Of a stretch of 64,000 nucleotides of DNA, positions 1,412 to 39,652 are shown in pieces. A program made the position numbers and the translations under genes. The notes below the pieces were generated by a model. The model searched no databases. It was not told the DNA's origin and worked only from the letters and a program-made list of their open reading frames with translations. Location: the IMG/VR virus record IMGVR_UViG_2654587674_000003. One strand, given 5' to 3'. Origin of the DNA: a virus (taxonomy: Duplodnaviria; Heunggongvirae; Uroviricota; Caudoviricetes). How positions within the stretch are numbered: position 1 is the first letter of the stretch; each line of letters begins with the position of its first letter.

Positions 1412-1476
1412 ACGAACATAGCCCCTTCATAAGCAATGAACCAAAGGAGAGTATGCTCAGTTTGTGATTTCCGTTG

Positions 1477-3792: not shown

Positions 3793-4163
3793 GCGCCCAC
3801 CCCACTTGATTTCTGCATAACAATATCCATGCTCCCACCTTTCGCATAAAAACTAATTAATAAAGAATCTTCAGAAATTGATGTGCAACGAATCCCCTGC
3901 ACATCCAAACCTGGCAAGTCTTGTCGTAGTTTTTTCATCATTCTCCCTTCAATAGCCACTTCAACTATGTGCGAAGTTTCAGAGCCGAATGGTTCATGCT
4001 TAAATTCTTCCATTGGACTCCCCCAAGAGGGTAAACCATAAACACTCCCTTCAGGGGTTCGTAGCCACTCGTCAAGTCGGGCCATCCATGCTGCGGTACT
4101 TCCTTCTGCAATAATGACACCGCTCTCATTCGTTTGAAGTCTTGCGTCTATTTCGTAAAGCAT
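3789..4163 (-). CDS. Small baseplate protein (gp46 / W-like)
   Basis: 124-aa ORF directly after the tape-measure gene, translationally coupled to the next gene. Confidence 0.4.
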   Translation of the reverse strand: MLYEIDARLQTNESGVIIAEGSTAAWMARLDEWLRTPEGSVYGLPSWGSPMEEFKHEPFGSETSHIVEVAIEGRMMKKLRQDLPGLDVQGIRCTSISEDSLLISFYAKGGSMDIVMQKSSGVGA

Positions 4164-4168
4164 CAGTA

Positions 4169-7100
4169 TTAATCCTCAAGCAGAGCATCCAGCGACTGGT
4201 CATTAATAGTTGTGCTCGCACGTGGTCGCGGCTGCGGCTGCGATGTTTTGACAACATTATCCGGATCGCCTTTTGTATTGTTCTTGTTCACATTCAGCAG
4301 ATCGTTCAGGATAGAGCAGATGTTATCCAGCGCCTTCAACATAGCAGGATCGTTATTTATAGTGTCAGTAGTTAATGGTTGTCTTATTCCGCTTCGTGCG
4401 AGATCGGTTACAGTAGGGAGTTGTGGCGGCATAGCAAGAAAAGGTTCTTGCACAGCTGAAGCAGAGCCAAATATGGCGTTATTGGCACCAGTTGCTATTC
4501 CCCTAATGCTATTAGCGGTTTGTTGAATCCCCCCATTCAGCCAGTCTCCAACATTTCTTGTTAATGGGCTAATAGCTCGCGCAATCGCACTATTCTGCCC
4601 AGTAGACTGCATTACAAGATCGTTCAATATCCCTGTACTATCAATCCCCCCAACAAGTCGTGAAAGGTTATCGCCAACGGCAGGAATTACTGCGGTTCCT
4701 GCCTGTTTAAGCCCTGACACCGTGGAATCAAATAGCGAACCAAAGAAGCTCTTATCCTCACCTGTAACCACCTTGTAGCCGTTGTCATAAATCTGCACAT
4801 CACTTGGTGCCGTGATAGTTCGTTTTCCAGAGGTAACTACTGGCGCAGCTCCCGACATAGCCTGGTTGATTGCTAGAGCCTGCTCCTGCTGTGGGGGTTT
4901 CGGTGCTGGCGCTGCAGACGAAAAGCCCGCCATAGCCTGGTTGATTGCTAGAGCCTGCTCCTGCTGTGGGGTTTTCGGTGCTGGCGCTGCAGATGAAAAG
5001 CCCGCCATAGCCTGACTGATTGCTAGAGCCTGCTCCTGCTGTGGGGATTTCGGTGCTGGCGCTGCAGACGAAAAGCCCGCCATAGCCTGGTTGATTGCTA
5101 GAGCCTGCTCCTGCTGTGGGGTTTTCGGTGCTGGCGCTGCAGACGAAAAGCCCGCCATAGCCTGACTGATTGCTAGAGCCTGCTCCTGCTGTGGGGTTTT
5201 CGGTGCTGGCGCTGCAGACGAAAAGCCCGCCATAGCCTGGCTGATTGCTAGAGCCTGCTCCTGCTGTGGAGTTTTCGGAGTAGAAGGGGATACTTGATCT
5301 CCCGGAAGTAGATCAATGATTTCTGTATCGTGATTAACAGTGCGTTTTTGTTGTATGGCTGTTGCGATATCAGCCACTTGAGAAGCTTTTTTAAATCCAA
5401 AAGATTTACCGGTTAAGCCGGATATCTTTTCAGTAAGAGCCTGATCCATTCCTTTCGCTTTTTCGGAAAGCGAAGATATAGAACCAAACGAAGTAGCCGA
5501 CGCAAAATCCTTTACCAGGTCCAGACTTGTTCCAGCAAGGCTGGTAGCCGCGCCGCCAAATAAATTACTTGCACCACTGATTCCGCTTTCATTTATTGCG
5601 ATTAACCGCTCAAGCAAACTCGATGGAGAGCCGGTATTAACATCAGCGTTCTCTGGATTAATCGGTTGTGGTTGGTTACCTTTTTTTTGTGGCTTTTTGG
5701 CGGCCTGGGCATGTTGTGCAACTTCAATTGGCTTAGGTGTTGCTGTTGGAACTGCATTCAATACAGGTTGTGCTGGAGATGTACCATCAGCATATTTCAC
5801 CTTGCGACCAACGCTATATTGCGAATCACGAGCAATTAGTTGACCGCCATTCTCTTGCTGAATTTTATTAAGCCGCGCCAATGTTTCATCGGAGAACCGC
5901 CCTTCCCAACGACCAGTATTTGCGTTGAATGCCCCAAGAGCATTCTTTATGAACTCATTGTTAACCGCCGGGTTTCCACCTTCTTTCGTCGCTATTGCAC
6001 GAACTAATTGCGTCATAACCTCTGGGTTGCTGACGTCTATTTTTTCATTAGGCGAGACGCCAAGATATTTACTGACGTTATCAATATATTGATTGGTATT
6101 GTTCTCATTTGGCGGCGCCCATTTGGAAATGATGCTTGATACCGTCTGTAACTTCTGATGTCCTGCTGCGGCACTGGTGCCGTTGTAATAGCTTGACACT
6201 TGGTTTGCCAACGCCCTGATCCCTTCTTCAGGCGTGTTGAATCGAGCAAAACGCTGTTCACCTTTTGCATTCGGTGCTTCCAGCGTCGCCCCTTCCTGAT
6301 TGGCGAAAACAAGGTTCCCGAGATTATTATTCCGATAATTGCGGTTTTTAGCGTTGCTGCCACCAATATTCAGATCCGCAGCAATGGTGTTACTGGTAGG
6401 CGCATTAAATTCAGCCGGGGAAGTATACCCGTGCTCACCAACACCATCTTCACCATCACGCCCGCCTTGTAGCTGTCGGCCCAGGTTATTAATTGCGGTT
6501 ACCGTTTGCTTGGTGCCATCTTCAACGGCTTTCTTAACCTGCGCAGTGCCTTCGCTGCTTGATGAGAACGATTCTTTTAGGCTGCTGAATACGGTTTTTG
6601 TCGTGTCTATAGAACTATTTATGTCACGAGCAATATCTCCAGTGTCAAAATTCTGAAGTTTTTCACCTGCCCCTTCAAAGCCTAACGCAGAAATCCCTTT
6701 GCCTATTAGGTTGGTTGCACCCGACACTAAGCCGCCCATATCAAGCACATTAGCTGCTGCATAAGCGGTTTTTTGCTGTGTGGATACAGCATTATCATCA
6801 CTTAAGCCAAAGGCTGCCTTTTGTGCCTCTGTATCAGTGTAACCGTCTATAGCATCGTATCCTGCCATAGCGATATTGCCGATAATTGGGATTCCTCTGA
6901 CGCCAGCCCTTACGGCTGCACCACCGGCAGCTTTTAATGCGATTTTTCCAGCCTCTTTCTTTGCGAGATTCTCCCCTGTTGCGATAGCTACTTTCTCGGT
7001 AGTTGCTTCAGTTGCAGCTTTGGCTATACCGGTACTAGCCGTTTTTCTGGCCCCTTTATCTGCAACTTTCTCCGTCGTTTTTGAAGCATCACCAATAGCC

Positions 7101-8455
7101 TCTTTTCCGGCGTTGCGGGGTTGGTGATTTTCATTTTTAACGGAATTATTTTTGCTATTTTGTTGTTTTTTCTCAACTTTATCTTTGGGGGTTGATGTTT
7201 CGCCTTTTTCCGTTGTAGTTGTTTTAATTTTGTCCTTTTTGGCTTCAGGTCTTTTATCAGCTCTTCTATCCTTTTTAGACTTGTTTTTGTTTCGATTTGT
7301 TTTATTGCGATTTGAGGTAATGCGATCTCGGTTTCGACTAAAAAGATCACTTAACTTAATTCCATTACCTTTTGTTTTCATAGATTTACGGAGTTTTACT
7401 ATTTCATCTGAAACATTCTCCAACTCATCTATGATTCGAGCGTCATTGGATTGAAGAACTTTGGTTTGTTCTTCAACTACTCGTACTGACTTTGCTTCAA
7501 TCGCGTTGTTAAATGCTGCTGAGGAAGCCGAATTTTTTTCATTTCTAGGCGCAGGATAAGTGATTGCTGCTGGTTTCGATTCAGATGTCGATAAATTGCT
7601 GTCCCCTTTATCACTCCACTCTTTAAGCGATTCTGCTTTCCCGGTGATCTCTTTTGTAATGTCATAAATGCCGCGAGCCGCCATCCATAACGGGCCGCCA
7701 GCGCCAACACCGGCAGCATTTGTTATGGCATCTTCACCTGCAGACTGGTGATTATCCATTCCCATAATTGAGCCAAGCTTTCTGAGAAAGCCGGCTTGTA
7801 ATTTTGCGTCGGCTTTACGTGCGTTCTGCAATTCTTTTTTTCTGGCTACATCCTCATTGCTTTTTTGGGATACAAAACGTCCATTACTATCCCGCAGCGG
7901 GCCTTTTAGACTTTGGGGGGATTGTGGTTCAAGAGGGGCTGAATTAGCAGCTACCGGTATAAAACCGTCCGATTTTCGGATGGTCTGACGTGATTGCACG
8001 GAGCGAACACTTTCTGGTGTGTTCGTTGCAACGATAGAGCGGTCCACGGTTTGGTTTAACGGTGTCCTTTCCTTTTTAGCAGGGAGACGTTTTTTATATG
8101 GGTTAGTTTGGACATCTCTAACGCTATCAGATGTACTTTGCTCGTACTCTTTACGCCTGCGTGATAGTCTGTTGCTAACTCTGCCTTGCCTTTCGGCCTG
8201 TTGAGTTATGGTGCTTGCCCCAGAAAGAATGGCATCTTTGATCTCAGCAAGAGCCTTAAGTTCGTTTGTGCTCGCCCCCTGAATAGCGTCAATTATTGCG
8301 ATACGGTCTTTATTCTCTTTCAAAATAACCTCTCTTTTACCAGCGGCGACAACGTTTCCCGGCTTGAGCTTTGTATTTTTCTTCCAGGGCTTTTGACATA
8401 TGGAGTGCTCGCCATTGTGGCAATTGTTCAACGTCACTAACGGGCTGATATCCAT
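4169..8455 (-). CDS. Tail tape-measure-like / injection protein (1428 aa)
   Basis: Very large ORF upstream of baseplate genes; Ala/Gly-rich helical segments, K/R/N-rich low-complexity tract, tandem 25-aa repeats. Confidence 0.6.
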   Translation of the reverse strand: MDISPLVTLNNCHNGEHSICQKPWKKNTKLKPGNVVAAGKREVILKENKDRIAIIDAIQGASTNELKALAEIKDAILSGASTITQQAERQGRVSNRLSRRRKEYEQSTSDSVRDVQTNPYKKRLPAKKERTPLNQTVDRSIVATNTPESVRSVQSRQTIRKSDGFIPVAANSAPLEPQSPQSLKGPLRDSNGRFVSQKSNEDVARKKELQNARKADAKLQAGFLRKLGSIMGMDNHQSAGEDAITNAAGVGAGGPLWMAARGIYDITKEITGKAESLKEWSDKGDSNLSTSESKPAAITYPAPRNEKNSASSAAFNNAIEAKSVRVVEEQTKVLQSNDARIIDELENVSDEIVKLRKSMKTKGNGIKLSDLFSRNRDRITSNRNKTNRNKNKSKKDRRADKRPEAKKDKIKTTTTEKGETSTPKDKVEKKQQNSKNNSVKNENHQPRNAGKEAIGDASKTTEKVADKGARKTASTGIAKAATEATTEKVAIATGENLAKKEAGKIALKAAGGAAVRAGVRGIPIIGNIAMAGYDAIDGYTDTEAQKAAFGLSDDNAVSTQQKTAYAAANVLDMGGLVSGATNLIGKGISALGFEGAGEKLQNFDTGDIARDINSSIDTTKTVFSSLKESFSSSSEGTAQVKKAVEDGTKQTVTAINNLGRQLQGGRDGEDGVGEHGYTSPAEFNAPTSNTIAADLNIGGSNAKNRNYRNNNLGNLVFANQEGATLEAPNAKGEQRFARFNTPEEGIRALANQVSSYYNGTSAAAGHQKLQTVSSIISKWAPPNENNTNQYIDNVSKYLGVSPNEKIDVSNPEVMTQLVRAIATKEGGNPAVNNEFIKNALGAFNANTGRWEGRFSDETLARLNKIQQENGGQLIARDSQYSVGRKVKYADGTSPAQPVLNAVPTATPKPIEVAQHAQAAKKPQKKGNQPQPINPENADVNTGSPSSLLERLIAINESGISGASNLFGGAATSLAGTSLDLVKDFASATSFGSISSLSEKAKGMDQALTEKISGLTGKSFGFKKASQVADIATAIQQKRTVNHDTEIIDLLPGDQVSPSTPKTPQQEQALAISQAMAGFSSAAPAPKTPQQEQALAISQAMAGFSSAAPAPKTPQQEQALAINQAMAGFSSAAPAPKSPQQEQALAISQAMAGFSSAAPAPKTPQQEQALAINQAMAGFSSAAPAPKPPQQEQALAINQAMSGAAPVVTSGKRTITAPSDVQIYDNGYKVVTGEDKSFFGSLFDSTVSGLKQAGTAVIPAVGDNLSRLVGGIDSTGILNDLVMQSTGQNSAIARAISPLTRNVGDWLNGGIQQTANSIRGIATGANNAIFGSASAVQEPFLAMPPQLPTVTDLARSGIRQPLTTDTINNDPAMLKALDNICSILNDLLNVNKNNTKGDPDNVVKTSQPQPRPRASTTINDQSLDALLED
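4856..5290. repeat. Tandem repeat, about 6 x 75 bp, inside the tape-measure gene
   Basis: Unit CATAGCCTGGTTGATTGCTAGAGCCTGCTCCTGCTGTGGGGTTTTCGGTGCTGGCGCTGCAGACGAAAAGCCCGC restarts at 4856, 4931, 5006, 5081, 5156, 5231 with 1-3 substitutions; encodes PAPKTPQQEQALAISQAMAGFSSAA. Confidence 0.9.
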
Positions 8456-8469: not shown

Positions 8470-9291
8470 TTAATAATGGTTAGCCATCCATTCAGATCTA
8501 ATTGATGGGATAAACTCTCTATTGAGAAAGGGGACGTACAGTGTGGTTGTCACATCTGCACCCTCCTTAGCGTTTTTGCAATGTTGCGGAGGCAGGATCA
8601 GTCGGCTTGAGCCTCTCTCAATAGACATTTTCAGGCCGTGGCGTAGGTCTTTTTGCATAAGCTGTATGCGAGCCACAAGCGGGGTAAATTCGGTTTCAAG
8701 CGCCATGCTTTCAATGATGTCAAAGCGTCGGTTAGCGGCCTGCGTGAAGTCCTCCGGATCGTCTTCAAGCGCCGTGCATAAAGCGAGTTCAGCAATTCGC
8801 ATCCGTGCCACGCCAGCACTGTATTCGGGGCTTTTCATATCAGGAAGTGACGCTCGCATTCGTTCAAGGAGTTCCGCGCCTTTCCCGGTTAATGGTTTAA
8901 GTATCCAGTCAGTTGGTACTCCATTTACTGGTACGTTGGTTTTCACGTAAGGAGGTACAGTGAGTATTTCTACTGTTTGGGCCAGGTCGCTCAGGTTAAT
9001 ATCTGCATGATGCGTATTACCGCAGTGACTGCACTCATAGGAGTAGGTCATTACTGCATCGGGGCGCGAATTAACAAATATCCACCAAAGGGCAGTTCTG
9101 CGATCCTGGACTGTCCAGTAAGCACTGTCGTTAATTTCACCATCCTGCATAGAGTTAAGGTACTCTGTAGTAGTTGCCTCATCTTCTGCCGGGTTCAGGT
9201 CAGAATATTTCAGCGCATCCTTCACGGTAGGGGCGTGGAACTGAATTTCTGTCTCAGGACGGGAAGGCAATGGGAATTTTGGAATGTTCAA
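8470..9291 (-). CDS. Hypothetical protein upstream of tape measure (possible tail assembly protein)
   Basis: 273-aa ORF, TTG start with GGAGGA 5 nt upstream; position only. Confidence 0.4.
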   Translation of the reverse strand: MNIPKFPLPSRPETEIQFHAPTVKDALKYSDLNPAEDEATTTEYLNSMQDGEINDSAYWTVQDRRTALWWIFVNSRPDAVMTYSYECSHCGNTHHADINLSDLAQTVEILTVPPYVKTNVPVNGVPTDWILKPLTGKGAELLERMRASLPDMKSPEYSAGVARMRIAELALCTALEDDPEDFTQAANRRFDIIESMALETEFTPLVARIQLMQKDLRHGLKMSIERGSSRLILPPQHCKNAKEGADVTTTLYVPFLNREFIPSIRSEWMANHY

Positions 9292-9433
9292 TTATTCCTC
9301 CGAAAAGCAGGTATCTGTTCATTTTCCAGAGGATAGGGAGTGTGTGATTTGCGATGGGGATTGAATGAAGATCTTTGCCGGTCGAGAAGCGATTATTGAG
9401 GGTGATTTTTACACCTTAAGTGACGCTACTCAC

Positions 9434-9442
9434 ATATCCACA
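9434..9442. promoter_or_regulatory. Candidate DnaA box (ATATCCACA) in the AT-rich region before the iterons
   Basis: 8 of 9 match to TTATCCACA; one GATC (about 9484) in the adjacent AT-rich stretch. Confidence 0.35.
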
Positions 9443-9537
9443 GAGTATTTTTATAAACCTTTTTCCATTTTTAATCCTTTTTAGATCCTTTTTAGGCGTC
9501 GCTGGAGCCAGTAGTGGCGCGGGCTGTAGAGGAGGCT

Positions 9538-9656
9538 GGTGTAAGATTTGCCCTCAATTAAATACGGTCGGTGTAAGATTTGCCCTCAGAAGGTGTAAGA
9601 TTTGCCCTCAAAAGGTGTAGTAATTGCCCTCAAAGTGATGTAAAAATTGCCCTCAC
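9538..9656 (+). repeat. Five direct iterons (about 22-bp period) upstream of repA; origin / incC-like
   Basis: GGTGTAAGATTTGCCCTCA x3, then GGTGTAGTAATTGCCCTCA and GTGATGTAAAAATTGCCCTCA at about 9538, 9570, 9592, 9614, 9636. Confidence 0.85.
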
Positions 9657-9679
9657 CATTTGAAGGATCACACAGGGTT

Positions 9680-10435
9680 ATGAACAGAGCGGAATTAACA
9701 GCAAAAGCCGTCAGCCTGATTGAGTCAGCGACACCTATTAGTCGTAGTTTGGCACAAGCCAATGAGATCACGGAGGCTGCTTATCACCTGACTCGCGACC
9801 AAAAGCGACTGTTGTTTATTGTGGTGGGAAGACTTCGCTATGCTTCTAAGGATGGCGTTCTTGGTTCAGGTGCCTGTGAGTTGACGGTCAACGAATATGC
9901 AGAGATGTATAATTTGCCCTCTGCTGAAGCCAGCAAGGATATTCGTAAGGCCATTTCAGGTCTTAGCGAGAAGAAAGTTACGATATATAACCCTGATGAA
10001 TCGACCGAATCAGAAGACAGTTATGAGTCTTATCCCTGGATGATTAAGGATGCCTATTCACCACGTCGCGGGACTTACATTATTCATCTTAATCCATATC
10101 TCATGCCGTTTTTTACTCTGCTTGATAAGAGATTCACAAGGCTGAATTTTACCGAAGTATCTCGCCTTACAAATCCTTATTCTATGCGGCTTTATGAGTC
10201 CTTATGCCAGTACAGGAAGGATGATGGAAGCGGCTTTGCCATACTTGGCGTCGAATGGATGCGGGAGCGTTATGGGTTACCAAAAAGCTATCAGCGGTAT
10301 GCCGAATTTAAGAGAAGTTTTTTAACGAAGGCTGTAGCAGAGATTGAAAAAAATACAAAAATGAAAATAGTCTTCTCAGAGGTGACGGAAGGCGGCAAAG
10401 TTACCAGGATAAAATTTACCTATCAGCAGTCTTAA
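9680..10435 (+). CDS. repA: Iteron-binding replication initiator RepA
   Basis: ORF flanked by iteron arrays; ATG at 9680 preferred over the TTG at 9647 that lies inside the last iteron. Confidence 0.75.
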   Translation: MNRAELTAKAVSLIESATPISRSLAQANEITEAAYHLTRDQKRLLFIVVGRLRYASKDGVLGSGACELTVNEYAEMYNLPSAEASKDIRKAISGLSEKKVTIYNPDESTESEDSYESYPWMIKDAYSPRRGTYIIHLNPYLMPFFTLLDKRFTRLNFTEVSRLTNPYSMRLYESLCQYRKDDGSGFAILGVEWMRERYGLPKSYQRYAEFKRSFLTKAVAEIEKNTKMKIVFSEVTEGGKVTRIKFTYQQS

Positions 10436-10765
10436 GGGCAATTTTTACACCCCTCTCAAGGTGTAGAATTTGCCCTTAACGATCGGCAATTGAGGGCAAT
10501 TTTTACATCTTAATTGCATGTATCTTGTTATTAGCAAGTTGTGTTTTTATATAACGTATTGATATGTAAGGACTATGTAAAAATCGCCCTCAACCAATAT
10601 CGTGCGTATCGTGCATTCTTATTGCGCTTTTTTATTATCATTCACTGTGTTAACTGATTGATATTATTGAAATGTGTAAAGAATGCCTTCATTACAGATG
10701 AATTGATGATGTAAAAAATGCCCTCAAAATTGCGCTACCTTCCCTACCCGCTATCGTTGAGGGCG
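10435..10765. repeat. Second iteron cluster downstream of repA, both orientations (incA-like copy-control)
   Basis: At least six copies of GTGTA(A/G)AAATTGCCCT(C/T)A-like elements near 10435, 10460, 10491, 10576, 10674, 10708. Confidence 0.7.
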
Positions 10766-10816
10766 TGGGTGCTGACGGGAAATGAGCAACCCTCCAGCAC
10801 ACATAATTAAAGCTAT

Positions 10817-11524
10817 TCAGAATTTGATCACTCCACTCACAGCCCCCTTTAACGCACTTGTAGCCATGCCAGCGGCACCGTTGACCAAAGCAGAAACACC
10901 TGAGCCTGCGGATGTGTATTTCTGGAAAGTGATTGGGTATGACAAGAACTCTGACACCTGATCACGTGAGCGTGTGATTTCCCCAAGTTGCGTAGGAAAT
11001 ACGCGCATTTCTTCTTCCAGTTCTTTTCCGCCGTCCTGAGTCACCCGGTAGACACGGATTTTCATCAGATATTCAGGAGGAAGGTTTATTGTTCCATCAG
11101 GATTTGTTACACGAGAACGACGCTCTTTGAACCAGTCCATGATCTTGCCATCTTCGGTATCCCTCACGGTCATAGTGACCGGTCCAGCGCTAACATAGGT
11201 TGGCTTGCTGAATTCTACGCTGCCGATCACCTTGCTTTCTGTCTCAATGTTTCCACTGCTGTAGGTGATATCCTTCACGAACATATCGAAGCCGTTCAGG
11301 CCATCCACTTCAACGGTCCACTGCCACCCCTGGGCGTAACGGATACGCATAGCGGCAGCAACAATATTTTTCCCGTAGGCAATATCGCTACTGTAATTCC
11401 CGCTTACCCCGCCGCCTGATATGGCTTTATCAAGAATGTCGCTAATGAGGTTGCTGGTGAATGATTTCGTGTTAAATGACAATGCGGTGGTCAACGTTCT
11501 ACCAACGCTGCTGAAAATACTCAC
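10817..11524 (-). CDS. Virion-associated hypothetical protein (235 aa)
   Basis: Last ORF of the minus-strand capsid/sheath cluster. Confidence 0.4.
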   Translation of the reverse strand: MSIFSSVGRTLTTALSFNTKSFTSNLISDILDKAISGGGVSGNYSSDIAYGKNIVAAAMRIRYAQGWQWTVEVDGLNGFDMFVKDITYSSGNIETESKVIGSVEFSKPTYVSAGPVTMTVRDTEDGKIMDWFKERRSRVTNPDGTINLPPEYLMKIRVYRVTQDGGKELEEEMRVFPTQLGEITRSRDQVSEFLSYPITFQKYTSAGSGVSALVNGAAGMATSALKGAVSGVIKF

Positions 11525-17913: not shown

Positions 17914-18040
17914 GGTTAAGCCCTAAATTCGGGCGCGGCGTGAAGGTTCTTTTGACGGGCTAACAATACCTACTTTGTGATTTAGTCAATAGGTTTAGTA
18001 AAATAAAATATATTAACACGCATATTGTTATGTGATTTAA

Positions 18041-20980: not shown

Positions 20981-21937
20981 ATGCGCATTTTTATCGATGA
21001 TGGTTCAACCAATATCAAAATGCTGTGGGAGCACGATGGGGAAACTTGCACTCACATCAGCCCTAACAGCTTTAAGCGCGGATGGTCAGCAACATTTGGT
21101 GCTGGCAAGCCGTTTAACTATGTCATTGACGACGAAAAGTATTCGTATGATTTGATCTCGCCAGATGTTCTGCCGACGAATAACGTGGAATGGCAATACA
21201 GCCCGCTTAACGTCCTGGCTGTTCACCATGCCCTGCTGACAAGTGGCATTGAGCCGCAGGAAGTAGAAATTGTGGTCACGCTGCCTCTGGCGGAGTTTTA
21301 CGACGACGACGCGCAATACAATCTCGATAACATCGAGCGCAAGAAAGCCAGTCTTATGCGCCCCGTCACGCTGAATAAAGGCAATGTGTTCACGATTAAG
21401 AAAGTTACGGTACGACCGGAGTCTATTCCGGCAGGAATTGGCCTGTGCGACAATCTGAACCCTGCCCATTCTGTTCTTATCGTCGATTTGGGTGGAACTA
21501 CCCTTGATGTTTCAATGGTCGCTGGGCAAATGACGGCAGTTTCCCGTGTTTTTGGCGATTCGAATCTTGGTGTATCACTGGTCACCAGGGAAGTAAGGCA
21601 AGCACTTGCAAGGGCCAATACCGAAACGTCAAATTACAATGTTGATCAGCTCATTATTAACCGCCACGATGAAGATTATCTGAACGACAATATCAATGAC
21701 CCATCAGCGATTGGTGATGTGAAAAAGGCCATTGCCGCAAGCATTGACCGTCTGCGTACCCGCGTTCTTGATGTGATTGGCGACTTTAAAGGATATACGC
21801 ATGTCATGGTGATCGGTGGTGGCGCACCGCTGGTGGCAGATGCAATTCGCGAGCAAGTTAATATTCGTGATGACCGTTTCTTCGTGGCGGATGACCCGCA
21901 ACTTGCTCTTGTTCATGGCCTGAAAGCAATCGGTTAA
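20981..21937 (+). CDS. parM: Actin-like segregation ATPase ParM/StbA family
   Basis: Actin-fold motifs DDGSTN, DLGGTTLD, VIGGGA; RBS upstream of ATG 20981. Confidence 0.75.
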   Translation: MRIFIDDGSTNIKMLWEHDGETCTHISPNSFKRGWSATFGAGKPFNYVIDDEKYSYDLISPDVLPTNNVEWQYSPLNVLAVHHALLTSGIEPQEVEIVVTLPLAEFYDDDAQYNLDNIERKKASLMRPVTLNKGNVFTIKKVTVRPESIPAGIGLCDNLNPAHSVLIVDLGGTTLDVSMVAGQMTAVSRVFGDSNLGVSLVTREVRQALARANTETSNYNVDQLIINRHDEDYLNDNINDPSAIGDVKKAIAASIDRLRTRVLDVIGDFKGYTHVMVIGGGAPLVADAIREQVNIRDDRFFVADDPQLALVHGLKAIG

Positions 21938-21944
21938 CGAGGTA

Positions 21945-22289
21945 ATGTCCATGTCTCAGGAACGTAAGAAAGTGATGATTTATCTTCGCCCAGAGGCTTA
22001 TGCCAATGAAAAGGCGGCGAGCGAGAAGATAAAAAAACATAGCGATATGGCAAGAACCGCATTGTTGGCAGGGCTTGCGCTGGGAGAAGTCGATAGCAGG
22101 CTTCCAGGATTACTGGCTTCCCTGCTGACCGAAGACAATAACCCGGAGCTGATCCGAAAAATGCTGGCATCCTTCCTGGAACTACCAGCTGCGGTTGAGG
22201 AGCGCCCTGCCTCCATTGAGCCAGTGAAGGAGCAAGTTGTTGCCAAAAGCGCGTCGGCGCGCAATCTGGCTGACTCTCTACCTGATTGA
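21945..22289 (+). CDS. parR: ParR-like centromere-binding adaptor
   Basis: Follows parM; segment ALLAGLALGEVDSRLPGLLASLLTED resembles R1 ParR as I recall it. Confidence 0.6.
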   Translation: MSMSQERKKVMIYLRPEAYANEKAASEKIKKHSDMARTALLAGLALGEVDSRLPGLLASLLTEDNNPELIRKMLASFLELPAAVEERPASIEPVKEQVVAKSASARNLADSLPD

Positions 22290-23766: not shown

Positions 23767-25428
23767 ATGAGTGAGGCAGAAGCCCGCCCGACTAACTTTA
23801 TTCGTCAGATCATCGATGAAGATCTGGCCAGTGGTAAGCACACCACAGTACATACCCGTTTCCCGCCGGAACCGAATGGCTATCTGCATATTGGTCATGC
23901 GAAATCTATCTGCCTGAACTTCGGGATCGCCCAGGACTATAAAGGCCAGTGCAACCTGCGTTTCGACGACACTAACCCGGTAAAAGAAGATATCGAGTAC
24001 GTCGAGTCGATTAAAAACGACGTTGAATGGTTAGGTTTTCACTGGTCTGGCGACATCCGTTACTCCTCCGATTATTTTGACAAACTCCATGCCTATGCTG
24101 TTGAACTGATCAACAAAGGCCTGGCGTATGTTGACGAACTGACGCCAGAACAGATCCGCGAATACCGCGGCACCCTGACGCAGCCGGGTAAAAACAGCCC
24201 GTACCGCGACCGCAGCGTTGAAGAGAACCTGGCGCTGTTCGAAAAAATGCGTGCCGGTGGTTTTGAAGAAGGTAAAGCCTGCCTGCGTGCGAAAATCGAC
24301 ATGGCTTCGCCGTTTATCGTGATGCGCGACCCGGTGCTGTACCGTATTAAGTTTGCTGAACACCACCAGACTGGCAACAAGTGGTGCATCTACCCGATGT
24401 ACGACTTCACCCACTGCATCAGCGATGCGCTGGAAGGTATTACGCACTCTCTGTGTACGCTTGAGTTCCAGGACAACCGTCGTCTGTATGACTGGGTACT
24501 GGACAACATCACCATTCCTGTTCACCCGCGCCAGTACGAATTCTCGCGCCTGAATCTGGAATACACCGTGATGTCCAAGCGTAAGCTGAACCTGCTGGTG
24601 ACCGACAAGCACGTTGAAGGCTGGGATGACCCGCGTATGCCGACCATTTCCGGTCTGCGTCGTCGTGGTTACACTGCGGCTTCTATTCGTGAGTTCTGCA
24701 AACGCATCGGCGTGACCAAGCAGGACAACACCATTGAGATGGCGTCGCTGGAATCCTGCATTCGTGAAGATCTCAACGAAAACGCCCCGCGCGCAATGGC
24801 GGTTATCGATCCGGTGAAACTGGTCATCGAAAACTATCAGGGCGAAGGCGAAATGGTCACCATGCCGAACCATCCAAACAAACCGGAAATGGGTAGCCGT
24901 CAGGTGCCGTTTAGCGGTGAGATTTGGATCGACCGCGCCGATTTCCGAGAAGAAGCTAACAAGCAGTACAAACGTCTGGTGCTGGGTAAAGAAGTGCGTC
25001 TGCGTAATGCTTACGTCATTAAGGCTGAACGCGTGGAGAAAGATGCCGAAGGTAATATCACCACCATCTTCTGTACTTATGACGCCGACACCTTAAGCAA
25101 AGATCCGGCAGATGGTCGTAAAGTGAAAGGCGTTATTCACTGGGTGAGCGCGGCACATGCGCTGCCGGTTGAAATCCGCCTGTACGATCGTCTGTTCAAC
25201 GTGCCGAACCCAGGTGCTGCGGATGATTTCCTGTCGGTGATTAACCCGGAATCGCTGGTGATCAAACAAGGCTTTGCTGAACCGTCGCTGAAAGAAGCGG
25301 TAGCGGGTAAAGCATTCCAGTTTGAGCGTGAAGGTTATTTCTGCCTCGACAGCCGCCATTCTACGGCGGAAAAACCGGTATTTAACCGCACCGTTGGACT
25401 GCGTGATACCTGGGCGAAGTTAGGTTAA
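23767..25428 (+). CDS. glnS: Glutaminyl-tRNA synthetase
   Basis: 553 aa; HIGH motif ([12 protein letters not shown]), VMSKR; near-identical to enterobacterial GlnRS as I recall it; own promoter region and terminator. Confidence 0.95.
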
Positions 25429-25452: not shown

Positions 25453-25479
25453 TAAACGCCGCTACTGCGGCGTTTTTTA
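25453..25479. terminator. Bidirectional terminator between convergent glnS and dmt
   Basis: AACGCCGC-TACT-GCGGCGTT plus TTTTTT; T-rich on the opposite strand as well. Confidence 0.75.
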
Positions 25480-28095
25480 CTTCATTATTGCAATTATATC
25501 GTTAGCAACTACACGTGTTGACGCCTTGCAGGAAACCGACCGTCTGGCTGCCATATGATGTACTTTAAACCCGTTTCCTTCATATAGTTCACGGATGTTT
25601 GGTGCACCACTATTTGTAATCACTACCTTAGCGCCGCGCTGGTGGGCTTCCACCAATAGAGATACCAGCCGTTTCTGTTCGTCGAAACGGAAGCTATTTC
25701 CTGAATAACTGGTAAACCCTTCTGTATCCGGCAGCGGTTCATACGGCGGATCGCAAAAAATCACATCGCCTTCACCAGCCGCCTCGATGACGCCAGCAAA
25801 GTCACCTGATACAAAGGACGTGTTTTTGAGTACGTCATCAGCCAAAAATGCCTCCATCTCTGCATGTGGGAAGTAGGGCGCTTTGTATTTGCCATACCCC
25901 ACGTTGAACTCGCCATTTTGGTTGTACCGCGTTACGCCATTAAAACAGTGCCGATTAAGGTACAAAAAGGCGGCAGCATGATGTAGCTGGTCATACTTTC
26001 CTCTGTTAAATGCCTCACGCACTTCGAGGTAAGCGTCAGCGTTGTTGTAATTTTGGAAAAAACTATATGACAGCGTGACGAGCGAATGTCCTTCTCGCTG
26101 CAATGTCTGATAGAAGTTAATCAGGTCACCGTTAATATCATTAAGCAGGTTGTGGCGAAATCCTGCATTCGTAAATACAGAACCGCCACCAACGAACGGT
26201 TCTATTAACCGCTTGCCGTGTGGTAGATGCTCAAGCACTGTAGGCAACTCTGAGAATTTACCGCCTACCCATTTGAAGATCGGACGCTCATATTCATCCG
26301 GAGTCCGGAGTTTTCTTGTGTAGGTAATGGTATTTATTGTTTTTGGCTGTTTAGCTTCCACAGTCGCAAGAATGCGACACCCAATCCATTGCATAACAGG
26401 AACTGCCATGCTGTTGCCAATCGCTTTGTAACGCGGCCCGTCAGCAGCGAGCATCGCGGCCTCTTCTTCGCTTAAATCTGGATAGTGATTGCGAAGGTAT
26501 GCCAGTTCATCTGAGGAAATTGTTTTACGCTTTTCCGTCGGGATCAACGTATGCCCATCAGGAAAACCTTGCAGCCTTTCACATTCGATAGGGGTAAGAC
26601 GGCGAACACTCATCATATGAGGTAAGTAACCATTATCACCTAATTCGCCTTTTTCAATACTTTTCTGCCCCCCAAAAGATAACGCAACGGCGTCAGCTGT
26701 AGCGCGGGAATCAAGAGTGAAACTTATCTCTTTTTGCCACCCTTTACCCTGCGGTCCAGCATCATCTTTTCGCCCAATTTGTGCATGTTGTAGCGAATAC
26801 GCAACAGCTGGTGGGCATCCTGCATTTGGATTGCTATTAACAGTATTACCAGATCGTAAAGTCGGAGAACATTCAATAGAAACATCTTGTCCATAATCTT
26901 TGCAGGAAAAAGCTACGACTGCATTTTCTTGACCATGGTTACGACCAATAGTATGTGCCAATTCACAATTAACATCAGGATCTTGTGTTCCATGAATAGC
27001 CATCACTGCCAGATGTTCGTGACTTTCTTGTGCTCTGGCACGAAGAGTGCCTGCACCTTCACGCCAAATACCAGCACCAGTACTACTGAAAACTGCTAAA
27101 TCGGTTGCATCTTTAAAATCTCTGGCCTTGACAGTAGAAGCAGTCTCATCATCAGCATATTCGCCAAATGCAACCATTCGATAAGCACCAACAAGCCCAC
27201 TTCCGCGCTGCGCAAAAATCTCCTGGTTACTTGCGCCGATCCCGCCAGTATTGTGTGACTGGTTAAGTGTCGGGTGCGGATTTACAGGGTTATCCCAATG
27301 GCTCCCGCTTTTAATGCCATTTCCAACATTTCCGGCAACTTCCTTCCCCTCGCCTCTGCTCGGCGCAATATTCCGGCGCACGCCTTCGAACTCAAAAAGT
27401 ACCGTTGCGGGATCGAGGTCTGTTCGAGCACTTGCGACAACAAACACGCGTCGGCGTCGTTGTGCCACTCCGAAGTATTGGGCATCAAGGATTCTCCAGG
27501 CCACCTTTCGCTGCGGTCCATAAATACAACCACACTGCGGCCACTTTGGAGCATGGCAACCGGTTTTGCCATCCCACCGCCAGAACGCGTTACTTTTTCC
27601 TGATTCAGGTCGATCACCTGGTTCAAATGGCGCATCTTCTCCAGCCAATCCGGCAAGGAAACATCCGAAGGCGTTATCTGCCGATGACAGGACTCCTGGG
27701 ACATTTTCCCAGACGATAACTGTCGGTTTGAGGAAGGACTCAGACCGTTTGTCGTCAATTGCATTTGCAAGCTCCACATACTTCAAAGTTAGCGCGCCGC
27801 GTTCATCATCAAGCCCACCACGTAAGCCCGCGATACTGAATGCCTGACAAGGCGTACCCCCGACGAGCACATCAGGGGATTCGATTTCCCCAGCCAGGAC
27901 TTTTTTGGCAAGTTTTGTCATGTCGCCAAGGTTGGCGACATGGGGCCAGCGGTGCGCAAGAACGGCAGATGGAAAAGGCTCGATTTCAGCAAACCACGCC
28001 GGACGCATACCCAACGGTTCCCAGGCAATGCTCGCTGCTTCAATTCCACTGCAAACTGAACCATATCTAAGGTTAACGTTCTGCTTCACCACCAA
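25477..28095 (-). CDS. dmt: Bifunctional DNA methyltransferase: N-terminal C5-cytosine MTase domain + C-terminal Dam-like N6-adenine MTase domain
   Basis: 872 aa; [12 protein letters not shown] and ENV motifs N-terminal; FVGGGS and DPPY motifs C-terminal; TTG/GTG start with GGAGG. Confidence 0.8.
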
Positions 28096-32239: not shown

Positions 32240-32389
32240 AGGTCGATCTGTCAGGTATCGAAAGGAAGATTTTCGGGAGATTGTGATTTTGGATGAAGGA
32301 GGGGGAATTCATAAAATGCACTTGCGCACAGTGCAACGGTGCGCTATAGTTATGGCATTCGGTAATCATCACGGAGGATCAAATGACTA

Positions 32390-36690: not shown

Positions 36691-36907
36691 TGCTTTGGCG
36701 TTATGACTCCCTACCGCGCTTCGGCTGAAAGTTAATCGTCAAAAGAACCTTCAACGGGAGCCGTTAGCGCGATGGATTATGTGCAGTTTGTGATTTCCAG
36801 AATAGTGTCAACCACTTTTTGAGGATTTTATTATTTGACCGAAACTTGGCCTAAATCATGTTGATGTAGTTGATTGTTTTTATAACATAAAACTTCATTT
36901 TGTTTAC

Positions 36908-37531
36908 ATGAAGGATGGTGTAGTGAAGTTAAGGGTTTTAGGGGCCGCGCTCGCGGCTATGTTGGGATGCGTATCTGCTAATACTGCCAATGCAACTGCG
37001 TTACCTGCACAATTCAGGGCAGGGCAGCAGGTTATGAATAACGCTGTTGGGGATCATTCACAAGCGGCCATTATGGACTTTTGCAAGAGGGAGGGCATTC
37101 CATTACGGCCTGTTGGAACTCAGTTTATTGGTAAAACTGACTTTTGCGTTTTTGCATATACAGCATATCTGACGGACAAAGCTATAACAAAAACAGGTTA
37201 TTCAACCAAAGATACTCTTTCCAGATTAAGTCAGGGATGGCAGCAATTCGAAGTGTATCGCCAGCAAGGATTAGGTGAGTTATTGCAACCACTTTTTATG
37301 CTTGCGTTGGTGCCAGAGGGGCAGCAATTTTTGGTTAAAAAGGGAATGCTTCGCCAAAGTGATATTGCCGGGTTCGATAGCATGATGGCTTATGAGCGCA
37401 AACTAACCGAGCAGCGAAATAAAAAACCATCTGCTTCATGTGTGCAAAGTAAAACAGCAGAATACAGTGCAGTAGCCGGGCCTTTAGCCAAACAAATGGC
37501 AGAGCAATGGTGTAAAAAATACGGGCAATAA
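36908..37531 (+). CDS. Secreted/periplasmic protein (207 aa) with N-terminal signal peptide
   Basis: Hydrophobic N-terminus LGAALAAMLGCVSANTANA; exclusion-type role is speculative. Confidence 0.5.
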   Translation: MKDGVVKLRVLGAALAAMLGCVSANTANATALPAQFRAGQQVMNNAVGDHSQAAIMDFCKREGIPLRPVGTQFIGKTDFCVFAYTAYLTDKAITKTGYSTKDTLSRLSQGWQQFEVYRQQGLGELLQPLFMLALVPEGQQFLVKKGMLRQSDIAGFDSMMAYERKLTEQRNKKPSASCVQSKTAEYSAVAGPLAKQMAEQWCKKYGQ

Positions 37532-37551
37532 GTTACGCAGCGGAGGCAGAA

Positions 37552-37944
37552 TTGAACAGATTGGCTATTGCTTTACTGGCGTCTTTCCCTTTGATCGCGA
37601 GCGCCGGAAATTTACAAGTTAAGTGCGGTCGGTTTGATATAAAAATCTATCCAGATGCCATATTTCTGAATGGGAATAAGGTTGATAACGCACACCGAAA
37701 AACTGAATCTGACGTAATGAGCTATGTGTTCCAGGAGTATGCGGAGATGGGGGGAACTTACACGCTGTACTCGCTGGATGTTCCTTCTCGCGGTGATATG
37801 ACATTATCCCATCAATGGCAGAACGCCGATGGCGAAGCTCTGCGCGAGGTTAAAACAGAAAAATGTGGCACTTTCCATTCTTTTAAAGGGAAAGCGCCAA
37901 ATGTTAAATCTGTGCTTGAAAAACAGCGCGCAGGTGAGCTTTAA
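37552..37944 (+). CDS. Secreted/periplasmic protein (130 aa) with signal peptide
   Basis: MNRLAIALLASFPLIASA signal-like N-terminus. Confidence 0.5.
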   Translation: MNRLAIALLASFPLIASAGNLQVKCGRFDIKIYPDAIFLNGNKVDNAHRKTESDVMSYVFQEYAEMGGTYTLYSLDVPSRGDMTLSHQWQNADGEALREVKTEKCGTFHSFKGKAPNVKSVLEKQRAGEL

Positions 37945-38252
37945 ACACCTTTAACCACGGAGATGCCGTTCCCTGCACGATAGCTGCGGGGAACGGAATT
38001 CTCCATCAGGTCACGAATTACTCCCGCCTCATGTAGTTCCTCTGTTTCCCAGTATCTGTTTGTCACCAGATCCAGGCTGGCTATGACCTTGTGCCGGTCA
38101 TTCGGCATAGCCAATTTTTCTGCTATAACCATCAGTGAAAACTCTTCATCCAGTAGGATTTGATACCAGACTTTTGCCAGTTCCAACTCTCTAATGAGGG
38201 TGAAGCGCCGCTCAAGTGTGGCGGCAGAATAAGTGAAATCTATTTTTTTCAT
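37941..38252 (-). CDS. Hypothetical protein (103 aa)
   Basis: ORF downstream of ant-like gene. Confidence 0.45.
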   Translation of the reverse strand: MKKIDFTYSAATLERRFTLIRELELAKVWYQILLDEEFSLMVIAEKLAMPNDRHKVIASLDLVTNRYWETEELHEAGVIRDLMENSVPRSYRAGNGISVVKGV

Positions 38253-39468: not shown

Positions 39469-39652
39469 ATTGGCAGCCTCCTTTGACTAAGTTAAGGAGC
39501 TACCGCGTGAGGTTCCAATCTCAATGGCGGTAGCACTGACTGGGTTGGAACTACCGGCGTCAAAGGGAACCGGCCTGCCTTTCGGCAGCCCAGCCAGCAC
39601 TACCATTGATCTCTGAGCTAAACGCTAAGTATGGCTGTGCGATGGCATGACA
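39469..39652 (-). ncRNA. Structured leader upstream of icd; candidate c4-like regulatory RNA region
   Basis: Several stem-loops (GCTACCGC...GCGGTAGC; CTGCC-TTTC-GGCAG) between a terminator and icd; analogy to the P1 immunity-I layout is inference. Confidence 0.3.

Follow-up and report, generated by a model that had tools for sequence, protein, structure and literature searches.

Known replicons of P1, F and D6

The replicon of P1 (oriR/repA/incC-incA, IncY) does in a related phage-plasmid the same job as the replicon analysed here. It comprises a DnaA box, an AT-rich stretch, five origin iterons spaced at about two helical turns, a rep gene whose promoter has no room outside the origin iterons and a copy-control field with iterons in both orientations. 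Its 19-bp iteron (GATGTGTGCTGGAGGGAAA) is found on both sides of repA, and the replicon is situated between upfA and parA, adjoining parAB-parS and gene 23. The F mini-replicon (ori2 (oriS)/repE/incB-incC) is arranged as tandem DnaA boxes (TTATCCAC), an AT-rich stretch, a GC-rich spacer and direct iterons of ~19 bp; an inverted-repeat operator for RepE dimers (AGTGTGACAAT...ATTGTCACACT) lies between the iterons and the start of the rep gene, and a second iteron field follows the gene.

The region examined here comprises positions 9292-10816 of a 64,000-nucleotide stretch of Caudoviricetes DNA, the whole of which is hereafter called the window. This region shares 99-100 % identity with Escherichia phage D6 and with ~100 plasmids of ~90 kb from E. 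coli, Salmonella and Shigella. The orf42 region of D6 (Acc: NC_050154/MF356679, 45453-46977) is the same element, with 99.2 % identity and the same flanking genes, and several E. coli plasmids show 100 % identity across the whole region, again with the same flanking genes. In D6, orf42 carries the annotation of a putative plasmid replication initiator; for the D6-like plasmid pYU39_89, a repB 'associated with iteron sequences' has been described (PMC6799933). The replicon is already known: public genomes carry its annotation, and the class to which it belongs as an ordinary member has been well studied. Public records of D6 and D6-like elements annotate the CDS only, with no iterons, origin or promoters. 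Our analysis makes it very probable that this replicon maintains the plasmid prophage of a D6-like phage-plasmid of the P1 family and that it is an F-type theta iteron replicon inserted at the tub|pmgB junction, with a restart late promoter beside it.

Iterons and origin core

We searched the whole window for the sequence TGTAARATTTGCCCTCA, allowing up to three mismatches, and compared the result with 100 shuffles. This iteron (~19 bp) returned 12 matches, all inside 9397-10726, against a chance expectation of 0.44 (~27-fold excess; 12 matches were reached in 0/100 shuffles), and a 13th copy with four mismatches is present at 10675-10691 (+). The 13 iterons in 9292-10816 comprise one inverted copy upstream, five direct copies before repA, one intragenic copy and six copies after repA. 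The features of the module are as follows:

9397-9413, minus strand: single inverted iteron, three mismatches to the consensus
9426-9442, plus strand: DnaA box ATATCCACA (box itself 9434-9442, 8/9 positions) with a degenerate second copy before it
9443-9497: AT-rich stretch, presumed DNA-unwinding region, with three CCTTTTT (9458, 9476, 9487) and one GATC (9484)
9540-9556, 9572-9588, 9594-9610, 9616-9632 and 9639-9655, plus strand: five direct origin iterons, consensus matches
9680-10435, plus strand: repA, Rep_3 (RepE-like) replication initiator of 251 aa (Pfam Rep3_N, Rep3_C)
9906-9922, plus strand: intragenic iteron-like sequence TGTATAATTTGCCCTCT in repA, two mismatches
10433-10449 (minus), 10462-10478 (plus), 10491-10507 (minus), 10576-10592 (plus), 10675-10691 (plus) and 10710-10726 (plus): six iterons of the putative copy-control field
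10552-10564, minus strand: IHF-consensus site TATCAATACGTTA, between iterons
10651-10663, minus strand: second IHF-consensus site TATCAATCAGTTA, between iterons
10764-10805: inverted pair of P1-RepA-type iteron look-alikes, CGTGGGTGCTGACGGGAAA (plus) and TATGTGTGCTGGAGGGTTG (minus)

The position and orientation of 13/13 iterons are kept in four relatives of 84-90 % identity, whereas the non-iteron DNA 3′ of repA has drifted to a mean column identity of 71 % in the same four relatives (alignment A2). The origin iterons themselves are invariant in relatives, while the spacers between them vary. They start at 9540, 9572, 9594, 9616 and 9639 (spacings of 32, 22, 22 and 23 bp), and Tandem Repeats Finder reported a period of 22 with 3.9 copies over 9570-9655. 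The preliminary description of this DNA had proposed five iterons in 22-bp phase before repA; the five direct copies are confirmed, but the 22-23-bp phasing covers four of them, the first being offset by 32 bp. Its count of at least six iterons in both orientations after repA agrees with the six that we found, from 10433 (-) to 10710 (+), and its wider proposal of an iteron replicon built from origin iterons, repA and copy-control iterons is upheld by the 13 iterons, the DnaA box, the AT-rich stretch and the Rep_3 gene.

Two of the copies, the inverted 9397-9413 (-) and the intragenic 9906-9922 (+), were missing from that earlier list. The inverted copy lies beyond the DnaA box and AT-rich region and is invariant in relatives. 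The intragenic copy is present in D6-like relatives and in relatives with RepA identities of 57-71 % (L016, L019 and L020); on comparison of the RepA relatives, it is not kept in L013 or F. Coding constraint explains part of its conservation.

By count, the DnaA box is not above chance, with 13 one-mismatch matches in the window versus 15 expected. We nevertheless accept ATATCCACA at 9434-9442, and with it the earlier suggestion of a DnaA-box-like site ahead of repA, because of its position, its invariance in relatives and its alignment with the tandem boxes of F ori2. The adjacent AT-rich stretch reaches 75-78 % A+T in 40-nt windows, is nearly invariant in relatives and aligns with the AT-rich part of F ori2; it probably serves as the site of unwinding. 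The region thus has the hallmarks of a Rep_3 iteron-replicon origin, namely phased direct iterons beside the rep gene, an AT-rich region and a DnaA box, all of them conserved in relatives.

repA and its relationship to F RepE

Both winged-helix domains of the predicted initiator, WH1 (Rep3_N, E value 2.9e-29, 102.7 bits, cut-off 22.4) and WH2 (Rep3_C, E value 9e-16, 58.3 bits, cut-off 21.1), score above the Pfam thresholds, placing the protein in the Rep_3 family (PF01051/PF21205). It matches the solved structure of F RepE in the PDB (E value ~1e-73) and shares 50 % identity over 228 aa with IncFIA RepE; against the RepE equivalog model (NCBIfam NF010305), it scored 280.6 bits versus a cut-off of 342. 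A dN/dS of 0.005-0.02 at dS 0.3-0.67 indicates that repA is under strong purifying selection.

The similarity to F extends into non-coding DNA. Taking the IncFIA plasmid pSFO157, which has only two origin iterons in its ori2, as the F reference, we found the origin core, which here too has a GC-rich spacer between the AT-rich stretch and the iterons, to be homologous to ori2, with a mean column identity of 72 % across the window, pSFO157 ori2 and two metagenomic relatives. The iterons (GGTGTAAGATTTGCCCTCA here, TGTGACAAATTGCCCTCAG in F) have the TTGCCCTCA half in common and differ in the other half (GGTGTAAGA here versus TGTGACAAA in F); only one half of the sequence that sets incompatibility specificity is shared with IncFIA. 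In both replicons, the rep gene is followed by a second iteron field, of mixed orientation here but with all copies inverted relative to the origin iterons in F, and the upstream and intragenic iterons are extra relative to F. Unlike F, the replicon has no adjacent sopABC: StbA-like partition genes lie 10 kb away and the flanks are phage tail genes. Judged by sequence comparison, the homologue of the replicon is F ori2/repE/incC and not P1 oriR/repA.

Only 24 bp lie between the end of the last origin iteron and the repA ATG. The iteron array must therefore overlap the promoter or 5′ leader of repA, and in this lack of room outside the origin iterons the locus resembles P1. No sigma-70-like promoter for repA was detected on the plus strand of 9300-9700, either by a tool scan or by a more relaxed scan of our own, and the 24-bp gap holds no inverted repeat comparable to the F operator. 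From this geometry, with iteron overlap and no F-type dimer operator, we deduce a scheme in which repA would be autorepressed in the manner of P1, by iteron occupancy over the promoter or leader.

Putative copy-control iteron field

The first iteron of the field, at 10433, overlaps the repA stop codon and forms a 20-nt inverted repeat with the second. In alignment A2, the field iterons form islands of conservation, and by analogy with F incC and P1 incA, we infer that 10433-10726 is likely to act in copy control. The IHF consensus WATCAANNNNTTR has eight matches in the whole window, two of which fall inside this ~380-bp field; both sites have cores that are conserved in A2. Two plus-strand terminator candidates at 10602-10627 were rejected on account of a weak fold (-6 kcal/mol, z = -0.5) and poor conservation. 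A search of Rfam returned nothing in the region, the only matches in the window being C4 and isrK at 39.5-39.7 kb.

Comparison with the P1 replicon

The preliminary description had likened the region to the P1 plasmid replicon. As an analogy this stands: the DnaA box, AT-rich stretch, five origin iterons, rep gene and copy-control field of both orientations recur here in the P1 layout. It fails as a statement of descent, since no significant similarity links RepA to that of P1 (best BLASTP E value 0.057), the iterons differ and the homologue is F. An actual P1-type (IncY) replicon, homologous to P1 oriR/repA/incA, would fit that general layout, and P1 RepA, too, scores as a weak Rep_3 protein (Rep3_N, 25.7 bits); the two P1-type look-alikes at 10764-10805 would also find a place in such a reading. 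Against it, the sequence-level homologues are F RepE and F ori2, a tblastn search with P1 RepA gave no match in D6, and the arrays on both sides of repA are built from TGTAARATTTGCCCTCA, a different repeat from that of P1, leaving the single inverted pair of look-alikes as the only P1-type iterons. The single GATC in the AT-rich stretch contrasts with five Dam sites in P1, and P1's replicon sits by gene 23 and parAB, whereas the present one sits between pmgB and tub. The IncY/P1-type identity is refuted at the level of sequence, and we give it next to no credence.

Flanking late genes and a candidate restart promoter

The replicon is flanked by the following features:

4169-8455, minus strand: sit-like gene, on the same side of the replicon as the pmgB-like gene
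8470-9291, minus strand: pmgB-like gene, first of the pmgB-sit-pmgA-bplA-16 late block (PHROG 1854, PmgB-like, E value 1.3e-134)
9330-9350, minus strand: D6-type late promoter-like motif AAATCACACACTCCCTATCCT, with a -22-box-like AAATCACA and a -10-like TATCCT, 39 bp upstream of the pmgB start
10817-11524, minus strand: tub-like tail tube gene, last of the 23-22-21-pmgG-bplB-pmgC-tub late block (PHROG 1842, E value 1.3e-98)

The pmgB-like gene corresponds to D6 orf41, annotated as 'similar to P1 pmgB' (tblastn: 39.8 % identity to P1 PmgB), and the tub-like gene to D6 orf43, annotated as 'similar to P1 tub'. The 23-to-tub cluster starts at the major capsid gene 23 and passes through the sheath gene 22. 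With the pmgB-sit block on one side and the 23-to-tub block on the other, the replicon is indeed wedged between two blocks of virion genes, as had been noted previously. The 1.5-kb module occupies exactly the tub|pmgB junction. In P1, the two genes belong to one late operon, LPsit, and lie 14 bp apart. The placement of the module is identical in D6 and four diverged relatives. Gene order is the same as in the P1 operon (pmgC-tub-pmgB-sit-pmgA-bplA-16); in P1, LPsit lies upstream of pmgC and the operon is uninterrupted, whereas here the replicon interrupts the operon, with the putative restart promoter upstream of pmgB.

The motif for this promoter was derived from D6-like upstream regions and takes the form AAATCACA-N7-YATNNT. 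In its strict version, it has four sites in the window versus 0.05 expected; in a relaxed version, it has eight sites in the whole D6 genome, 8/8 of which are intergenic and 30-137 bp upstream of late genes, and three of these occupy the positions of P1 LPs, LP23 and LPmat (upstream of R, 23 and mat). In six diverged relatives, the flanks of 9329-9350 vary but this block itself does not, and a homologue of lpa is encoded at 62478-62867. The late promoters of P1 consist of a 9-bp -22 box (AAGTGACTT) and a -10 hexamer. The D6 motif (AAATCACA...YATNNT) has the same two-part design but a different box sequence and a box-to--10 gap of 6 nt versus 4 nt in P1; it is a variant that keeps the P1-family pattern of a -22 box and -10 hexamer, with no -35, upstream of late operons. 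The literal P1 consensus (AARTKACT-N5-TANAAT) is not enriched, with four matches versus six expected in the window and none near pmgB.

Taken together, motif content and conservation support 9330-9350 as a predicted late promoter for the pmgB-sit block beside the origin. Distances of 46 and 84 bp separate the motif from the nearest iteron and the DnaA box, respectively, and its orientation is divergent from that of the origin. An earlier expectation that the promoter of the tape-measure operon must lie within or beside the origin is accordingly borne out for 'beside' and not for 'within'. A terminator scan revealed no clear minus-strand terminator between tub and the replicon or repA, so late read-through may also feed pmgB. 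The arrangement as a whole is more simply explained by insertion of the module followed by a restart promoter, a sequence of events for which P1 offers a parallel in LPsit after the immunity/repL insertion.

Proposed mechanism and alternative explanations

The maintenance reading draws its support from the ~27-fold excess of iterons over chance, the retention of all 13, the Rep_3/RepE matches, the low dN/dS and the plasmid-only occurrence. By extension from F RepE and other Rep_3 initiators, RepA monomers would load onto the five phased origin iterons beside the DnaA box and AT-rich stretch and, together with DnaA, would melt the duplex and bring in the host replisome. The six downstream iterons, along with the upstream and intragenic copies, would titrate RepA and pair with the origin ('handcuffing'), keeping copy number low, and the two IHF bends may aid this pairing. 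In the D6 lineage, late transcription of pmgB-sit-pmgA-bplA-16 would restart at its own Lpa-type promoter at 9330-9350, beside the origin and pointing away from it.

The absence of a repA promoter from the sigma-70 scans could be taken to mean that the module is an inactive relic and that the plasmid prophage is kept by another origin. This is extremely improbable given the dN/dS of repA and the conservation of all iterons where the adjoining DNA has drifted; moreover, the module is the sole plasmid replicon typed in these ~90-kb circular plasmids and was always extrachromosomal in the 88 genomes that carry it. The preliminary description had also suggested that replication-state occupancy is coupled to late transcription. 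In one form of this idea, RepA/DnaA occupancy, especially of the inverted iteron 9397-9413, modulates the pmgB-sit promoter; in another, firing of the promoter opens the origin through upstream negative supercoiling. The short distances between motif, outermost iteron and DnaA box, their divergent arrangement and the invariance of both the inverted iteron and the motif in relatives would be in keeping with such coupling. Yet the motif lies outside all iterons and fires away from the origin, and a start near 9323 would put the nearest iteron at approximately -74 to -90, probably past the normal RNA polymerase footprint. The other seven late-promoter sites of D6 have no nearby iterons, and for lytic replication the family relies on repL, a gene that is also present in D6. 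Related RepA modules are found elsewhere (L016 by gene 23; L013 by HigB and darB-like genes), indicating that the replicon is not inherently tied to a place beside pmgB. We therefore set the suggestion aside as highly unlikely.

A further possibility concerns transcription from the opposite side. Late transcription from LP23 through tub, antisense to repA, could stop plasmid-mode replication during lytic growth, through transcriptional interference and antisense RNA, while feeding pmgB-sit, in which case the site would have been selected as a lysogeny/lysis switch. This reading is compatible with the maintenance replicon proposed above and adds a function to its position. The gene repA (+) and the 23-to-tub block (-) are transcribed towards each other; on the minus strand between tub and repA we found no site resembling an intrinsic terminator, and the hairpin by the tub stop is a weak one with no U-tract (z = -1.9). 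If read-through were efficient, however, a dedicated pmgB late promoter would be largely redundant; bound RepA arrays may act as roadblocks, and related modules occupy other sites without this geometry. We regard a selected switch of this kind as unlikely, though still worth considering.

Distribution and related modules

The replicon was found in 88 of 5426 complete E. coli genomes (1.6 %), and 101/101 places were on plasmids, with none chromosomal. In PLSDB, rep_cluster_1704 (MOB-suite) is the only type assigned in every D6-like plasmid inspected (~90-kb circular), and plasmid RepA matches show a gap between ≥95 % (D6-like) and ~50 % (IncFIA) identity. The PlasmidFinder type 'p0111' was considered and rejected, as p0111 belongs with P1-like RepA, differs from D6 repB and has unrelated iterons (TGTTGACTATACGCGA). 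A 2025 preprint reports that the D6-like replicon is missing from common replicon-typing databases. D6-like phage-plasmids are common in E. coli, Salmonella and Shigella and have been linked in the literature to invasive S. Typhimurium ST213. A map of the origin, iterons and putative restart late promoter would aid typing, as well as mini-replicon and incompatibility work against F (IncFIA) and P1 (IncY). It would also show in concrete terms how P1-family phages exchange and move plasmid modules with late operons still expressed. Current understanding is not overturned.

Related RepE-like modules were identified at RepA identities of 71 % (L016, a P1-like metagenomic contig), 78 % (L013/L014), 63 % (L020) and 57 % (Nissabacter plasmid CP028040). 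All share the same origin design, with five to six iterons in 22-bp phasing ending just before the rep gene, and the location of the module differs: in L016, it occupies P1's position by gene 23. The copy-control field varies widely in size, from a single iteron in L016 and L019 through the six of the present replicon to more than 20 in L020, and L016 has three inverted iterons at the same relative place as 9397-9413 here. The Nissabacter plasmid additionally carries, in convergent orientation to the module, a gene for a P1-type RepA (48 % identity to P1 RepA).

P1-type iteron look-alikes

The core of the look-alikes at 10764-10805 (ATGTGTGCTGGAGGG) is identical to 15/15 bases of P1 incC iterons 13 and 14, and shuffling gave an expectation of 0.33 P1-type iteron sites (≤4 mismatches) per 64 kb. 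A P1-type RepA is not encoded in D6, which was not among the 36 phage records matched by tblastn with P1 RepA. Reading the pair as a structural RNA or terminator was discarded, as the RNA fold is unremarkable on the two strands (z = -1.9 and -1.1). The pair could serve the RepA of P1-type (IncY) phage-plasmids as decoys or as sites of handcuffing. Taken jointly with a late-transcription switch-off, this proposal would make the position and the extra sites of the replicon functional and not an accident, which we find doubtful. If true, a D6-type element could depress or displace a P1 competitor, making iteron mimicry a means of inter-plasmid warfare. A neutral alternative is plausible, in which the look-alikes are the scar of an ancestral dual RepE-like/P1-RepA-like replicon such as that of Nissabacter plasmid CP028040. 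The pair is missing from two relatives and has multiplied to eight to nine copies in the related L013/L014 replicon.

Organization of the module

The module fills the 1525 bp that separate the start of a pmgB-like gene from the stop of a tub-like gene for the tail tube; repA is its single plus-strand gene.

Features of the module and its borders
8470-9291, minus strand: pmgB-like gene, whose start is the left border
9397-9413: single inverted iteron, upstream of the DnaA box
9434-9442: DnaA box ATATCCACA, matching at 8/9 positions and preceded by a degenerate second copy
Between the inverted and direct iterons: AT-rich stretch (75-78 % A+T; three CCTTTTT repeats, one GATC) and, as the third element there, a GC-rich spacer
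Starts 9540, 9572, 9594, 9616 and 9639: five direct origin iterons (spacing 32, 22, 22 and 23 bp)
9680-10435, plus strand: repA
9906: iteron inside repA
10433 (minus), 10462 (plus), 10491 (minus), 10576 (plus), 10675 (plus) and 10710 (plus): six iterons after repA
10552-10564 and 10651-10663, both minus strand: IHF-consensus sites between downstream iterons, conserved
10764-10782, plus strand: look-alike arm 1, CGTGGGTGCTGACGGGAAA, resembling a P1 RepA iteron
10787-10805, minus strand: look-alike arm 2, TATGTGTGCTGGAGGGTTG, resembling a P1 RepA iteron
10817-11524, minus strand: tub-like tail tube gene, whose stop is the right border

The 17-nt core TGTAARATTTGCCCTCA has 12 matches with up to three mismatches in the whole 64-kb window (chance expectation 0.44), all confined to 9397-10726, and a 13th copy at 10675 has four mismatches. 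The preliminary description of iterons, a DnaA box and repA is confirmed and gains two iterons; its central reading of the unit as an iteron plasmid replicon was correct. Its five origin iterons are all present, but the 22-bp phasing is not uniform, the first copy lying 32 bp from the next. By count alone, the DnaA box does not exceed chance (13 matches with one mismatch versus 15 expected); it was accepted because of its position and conservation. Two of the eight IHF-consensus matches in the window fall among the downstream iterons and, judging from F, P1 and other iteron plasmids, would fit a looping or handcuffing control region.

We looked for a sigma-70-like promoter upstream of repA and found none. 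As the last origin iteron lies only 24 bp from the repA ATG and only 8 bp from its AAGGA ribosome-binding site, the repA promoter or leader must overlap the iteron array, the same arrangement as in P1, where PrepA lies inside incC. By analogy, we infer that repA may be autorepressed by iteron occupancy.

Distribution and conservation

Escherichia phage D6, a plasmid prophage of the P1 family, matches the region at 99.2 % identity. About 100 plasmids of ~90 kb in E. coli, Salmonella and Shigella match it at 99-100 %; almost all of them are classed as non-mobilizable and assigned to replicon rep_cluster_1704. Among 5426 complete E. coli genomes, 88 carry the module, at 101 places that are all on plasmids (0 chromosomal). 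The element is already catalogued and annotated in public records: the D6 record lists the gene as orf42 ('similar to P1 gene repA?; pfam01051; putative plasmid replication initiation'), with no iterons or promoters annotated. According to a 2025 preprint, common replicon-typing databases lack D6-type replication genes. Iterons do appear in the literature: PMC6799933 describes the D6-like plasmid pYU39_89 as having a repB 'associated with iteron sequences'.

We compared D6 with four relatives (84-90 % identity) from E. coli, E. marmotae and E. fergusonii, all of which share the position of the module between pmgB and tub. Identity in the alignment is 90 % upstream of repA, where the spacers vary and the iterons, DnaA box and AT-rich repeats do not; downstream, mean column identity drops to 71 %, and the six iterons form conserved islands. 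All iteron sites (13/13) keep their position and orientation in the relatives. The module is a functional, selected unit; its reading as a relic was rejected on the strength of this iteron conservation and a repA dN/dS of 0.005-0.02 (dS 0.3-0.67).

Relationship to the F and P1 replicons

RepA contains Rep3_N and Rep3_C domains and matches solved structures of F-plasmid RepE (E value about 1e-73) and, weakly, R6K pi and pPS10 RepA. IncFIA RepE is 50 % identical to it over 228 residues, whereas BLASTP with P1 RepA, itself a marginal Rep_3 member (25.7 bits), gave a best E value of only 0.057. The F ori2, represented by IncFIA plasmid pSFO157, aligns with the DnaA-box/AT-rich/GC-spacer core, TATTTTTATAA and TTTTTAG being among the shared strings, and a four-sequence core alignment that includes it has 72 % mean column identity. 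The F iteron TGTGACAAATTGCCCTCAG has the TTGCCCTCA half in common with the iterons here and differs in the second half. The homologue of the module is F ori2/repE/incC, whose general layout is also the same. Since RepA, the origin core and the iteron half match F rather than P1, the previously proposed 'P1 plasmid replicon layout' holds as an analogy but not as a family assignment.

Membership of IncFIA was rejected because RepA scores 280.6 bits with the RepE equivalog model, below the 342-bit cut-off, and its plasmid matches show a gap between D6-type proteins (at least 95 %) and IncFIA RepE (~50 %). The other iteron half also differs, the downstream iterons are of mixed orientation whereas those of F are all inverted, and the inverted-repeat operator that F has between its iterons and rep start is missing.

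A candidate late promoter beside the origin

In P1, LPsit serves a single late operon, pmgC-tub-pmgB-sit-pmgA-bplA-16, with a tub-pmgB gap of 14 bp, and the plasmid replicon is found elsewhere, between upfA and parA and near gene 23; in the D6 lineage, the 1.5-kb module sits exactly at the tub|pmgB junction. Taken literally, the late-promoter consensus of P1 is not enriched in the window. The D6-type candidate, AAATCACA-N7-YATNNT, differs from that of P1, AAGTGACTT-N4-TANAAT. The motif AAATCACAMANT-N3-YATNNT emerged when the sequences preceding genes 23, R and pmgB were compared; a fourth, independent, perfect match to it lies upstream of mat (0.05 expected). A relaxed form, AAATCACA-N8-A-N3-T, occurs at eight sites in the complete D6 genome, 8/8 intergenic and on the correct strand, 30-137 bp upstream of lysozyme, portal, ddrB, R, pmgB, 23, gene 7 and mat. 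Three of the eight coincide in position with LPs, LP23 and LPmat as annotated in P1; the motif itself carries no annotation in D6 records.

D6-type late-promoter candidates in the window, upstream of R, pmgB, 23, gene 7 and mat
1450-1470, minus strand
9330-9350, minus strand (pmgB copy)
17963-17983, minus strand
32269-32289, minus strand
36776-36796, minus strand

The pmgB copy ends 39 bp short of the start codon; the relatives all have it unchanged, although its flanks vary. Together with the eight late-gene sites and an Lpa homologue encoded at 62478-62867, this gives computational support to the earlier deduction of a promoter for the tape-measure block, located beside the origin but not within it: the nearest iteron starts 46 bp upstream of the promoter box, from which transcription would run away from the origin. 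The further suggestion that replication-state occupancy is coupled to late transcription is unsupported.

In P1, the immunity/repL/sim module interrupts the late tail cluster between pmgF and pmgC, and LPsit restarts transcription right after it. By analogy, the motif before pmgB is explained economically by an insertion followed by a restart promoter, making this a clean example of a relocated plasmid module with a putative late promoter that restarts transcription. No minus-strand terminator-like site was found between tub and the replicon, so late transcription from tub may read through antisense to repA.

Mobility of the module and P1-type iteron look-alikes

The module is mobile within P1-family phages. 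In the P1-like metagenomic contig L016 (gp23 77 % identical to P1), the RepA shares 71 % identity with the one here and lies at P1's canonical position adjoining gene 23; in another contig, L013 (RepA 78 % identical), the module lies beside HigB-toxin and darB-like genes. Copy-control fields vary among these more distant relatives, from one iteron in L016 and in Nissabacter sp. plasmid CP028040 (L019) to >20 inverted iterons in a 1.1-kb downstream field of the RepE-like relative L020 (4740-5870). StbA/ParM-like partition genes (20981-22286, plus strand) lie ~10 kb from the replicon, so replication and partition modules are not adjacent here; P1 and F differ in this.

The inverted look-alike pair follows the last copy-control iteron and precedes the tub stop. 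Its core ATGTGTGCTGGAGGG is identical (15/15) to that of P1 incC iterons 13 and 14, and the variants GCTGACGGG and GCTGGCGGG, found here and in relatives, also occur among P1's own iterons. D6 encodes no P1-type RepA. The iterons of p0111-type replicons are unrelated in sequence. The pair is absent from two relatives and kept in E. fergusonii with a longer spacer; one arm there holds an exact Chi site, GCTGGTGG. Further look-alikes occur in the related loci L006 (4008-4068), L013 (4661-6266) and L014 (4661-6268), the latter two having 8-9 copies interleaved with RepE-type iterons in ~180-bp repeats.

The Nissabacter plasmid contains a back-to-back dual replicon (3840-6600) made up of two convergent genes, each with iterons of its own. 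One gene is RepE-like (57 % identical to RepA here); the other encodes a P1-type RepA (48 % identical to P1 RepA) and has its iterons between the two genes. With this precedent, the D6 pair could be the scar of a dual replicon. It might also act as a decoy against IncY competitors. RNA folding of the pair was unremarkable.

Other features of the window

A glutaminyl-tRNA synthetase-like gene (23767-25428, plus strand; glnS in D6) lies beside an 872-aa ORF (25477-28095, minus strand). This ORF falls in a segment (~26307-28073) that has no megablast match to D6, which has two methyltransferase genes there; several other segments of the window (~36960-38030, ~42170-43760 and ~47230-50450) also lack D6 matches. 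Rfam matches to C4 antisense RNA (39523-39610, minus strand, 77 bits) and isrK (39655-39733, minus strand, 61 bits) mark a P1-type immI immunity region, which interrupts the tail cluster in P1 but lies far from it here.

The sit-like gene (4169-8455, minus strand) contains a 75-bp tandem repeat (4851-5278; 5.7 copies, 96 % match) encoding a 25-aa unit (…PKTPQQEQALAISQAMAGFSSAAPA…) that recurs in the Sit/tail-ruler-like protein. D6 has a shorter version of this protein (1260 aa versus 1428 aa here), and in parts of the gene identity to D6 is only 78-88 %. Should Sit act as a ruler, ruler length may differ from one element to another.
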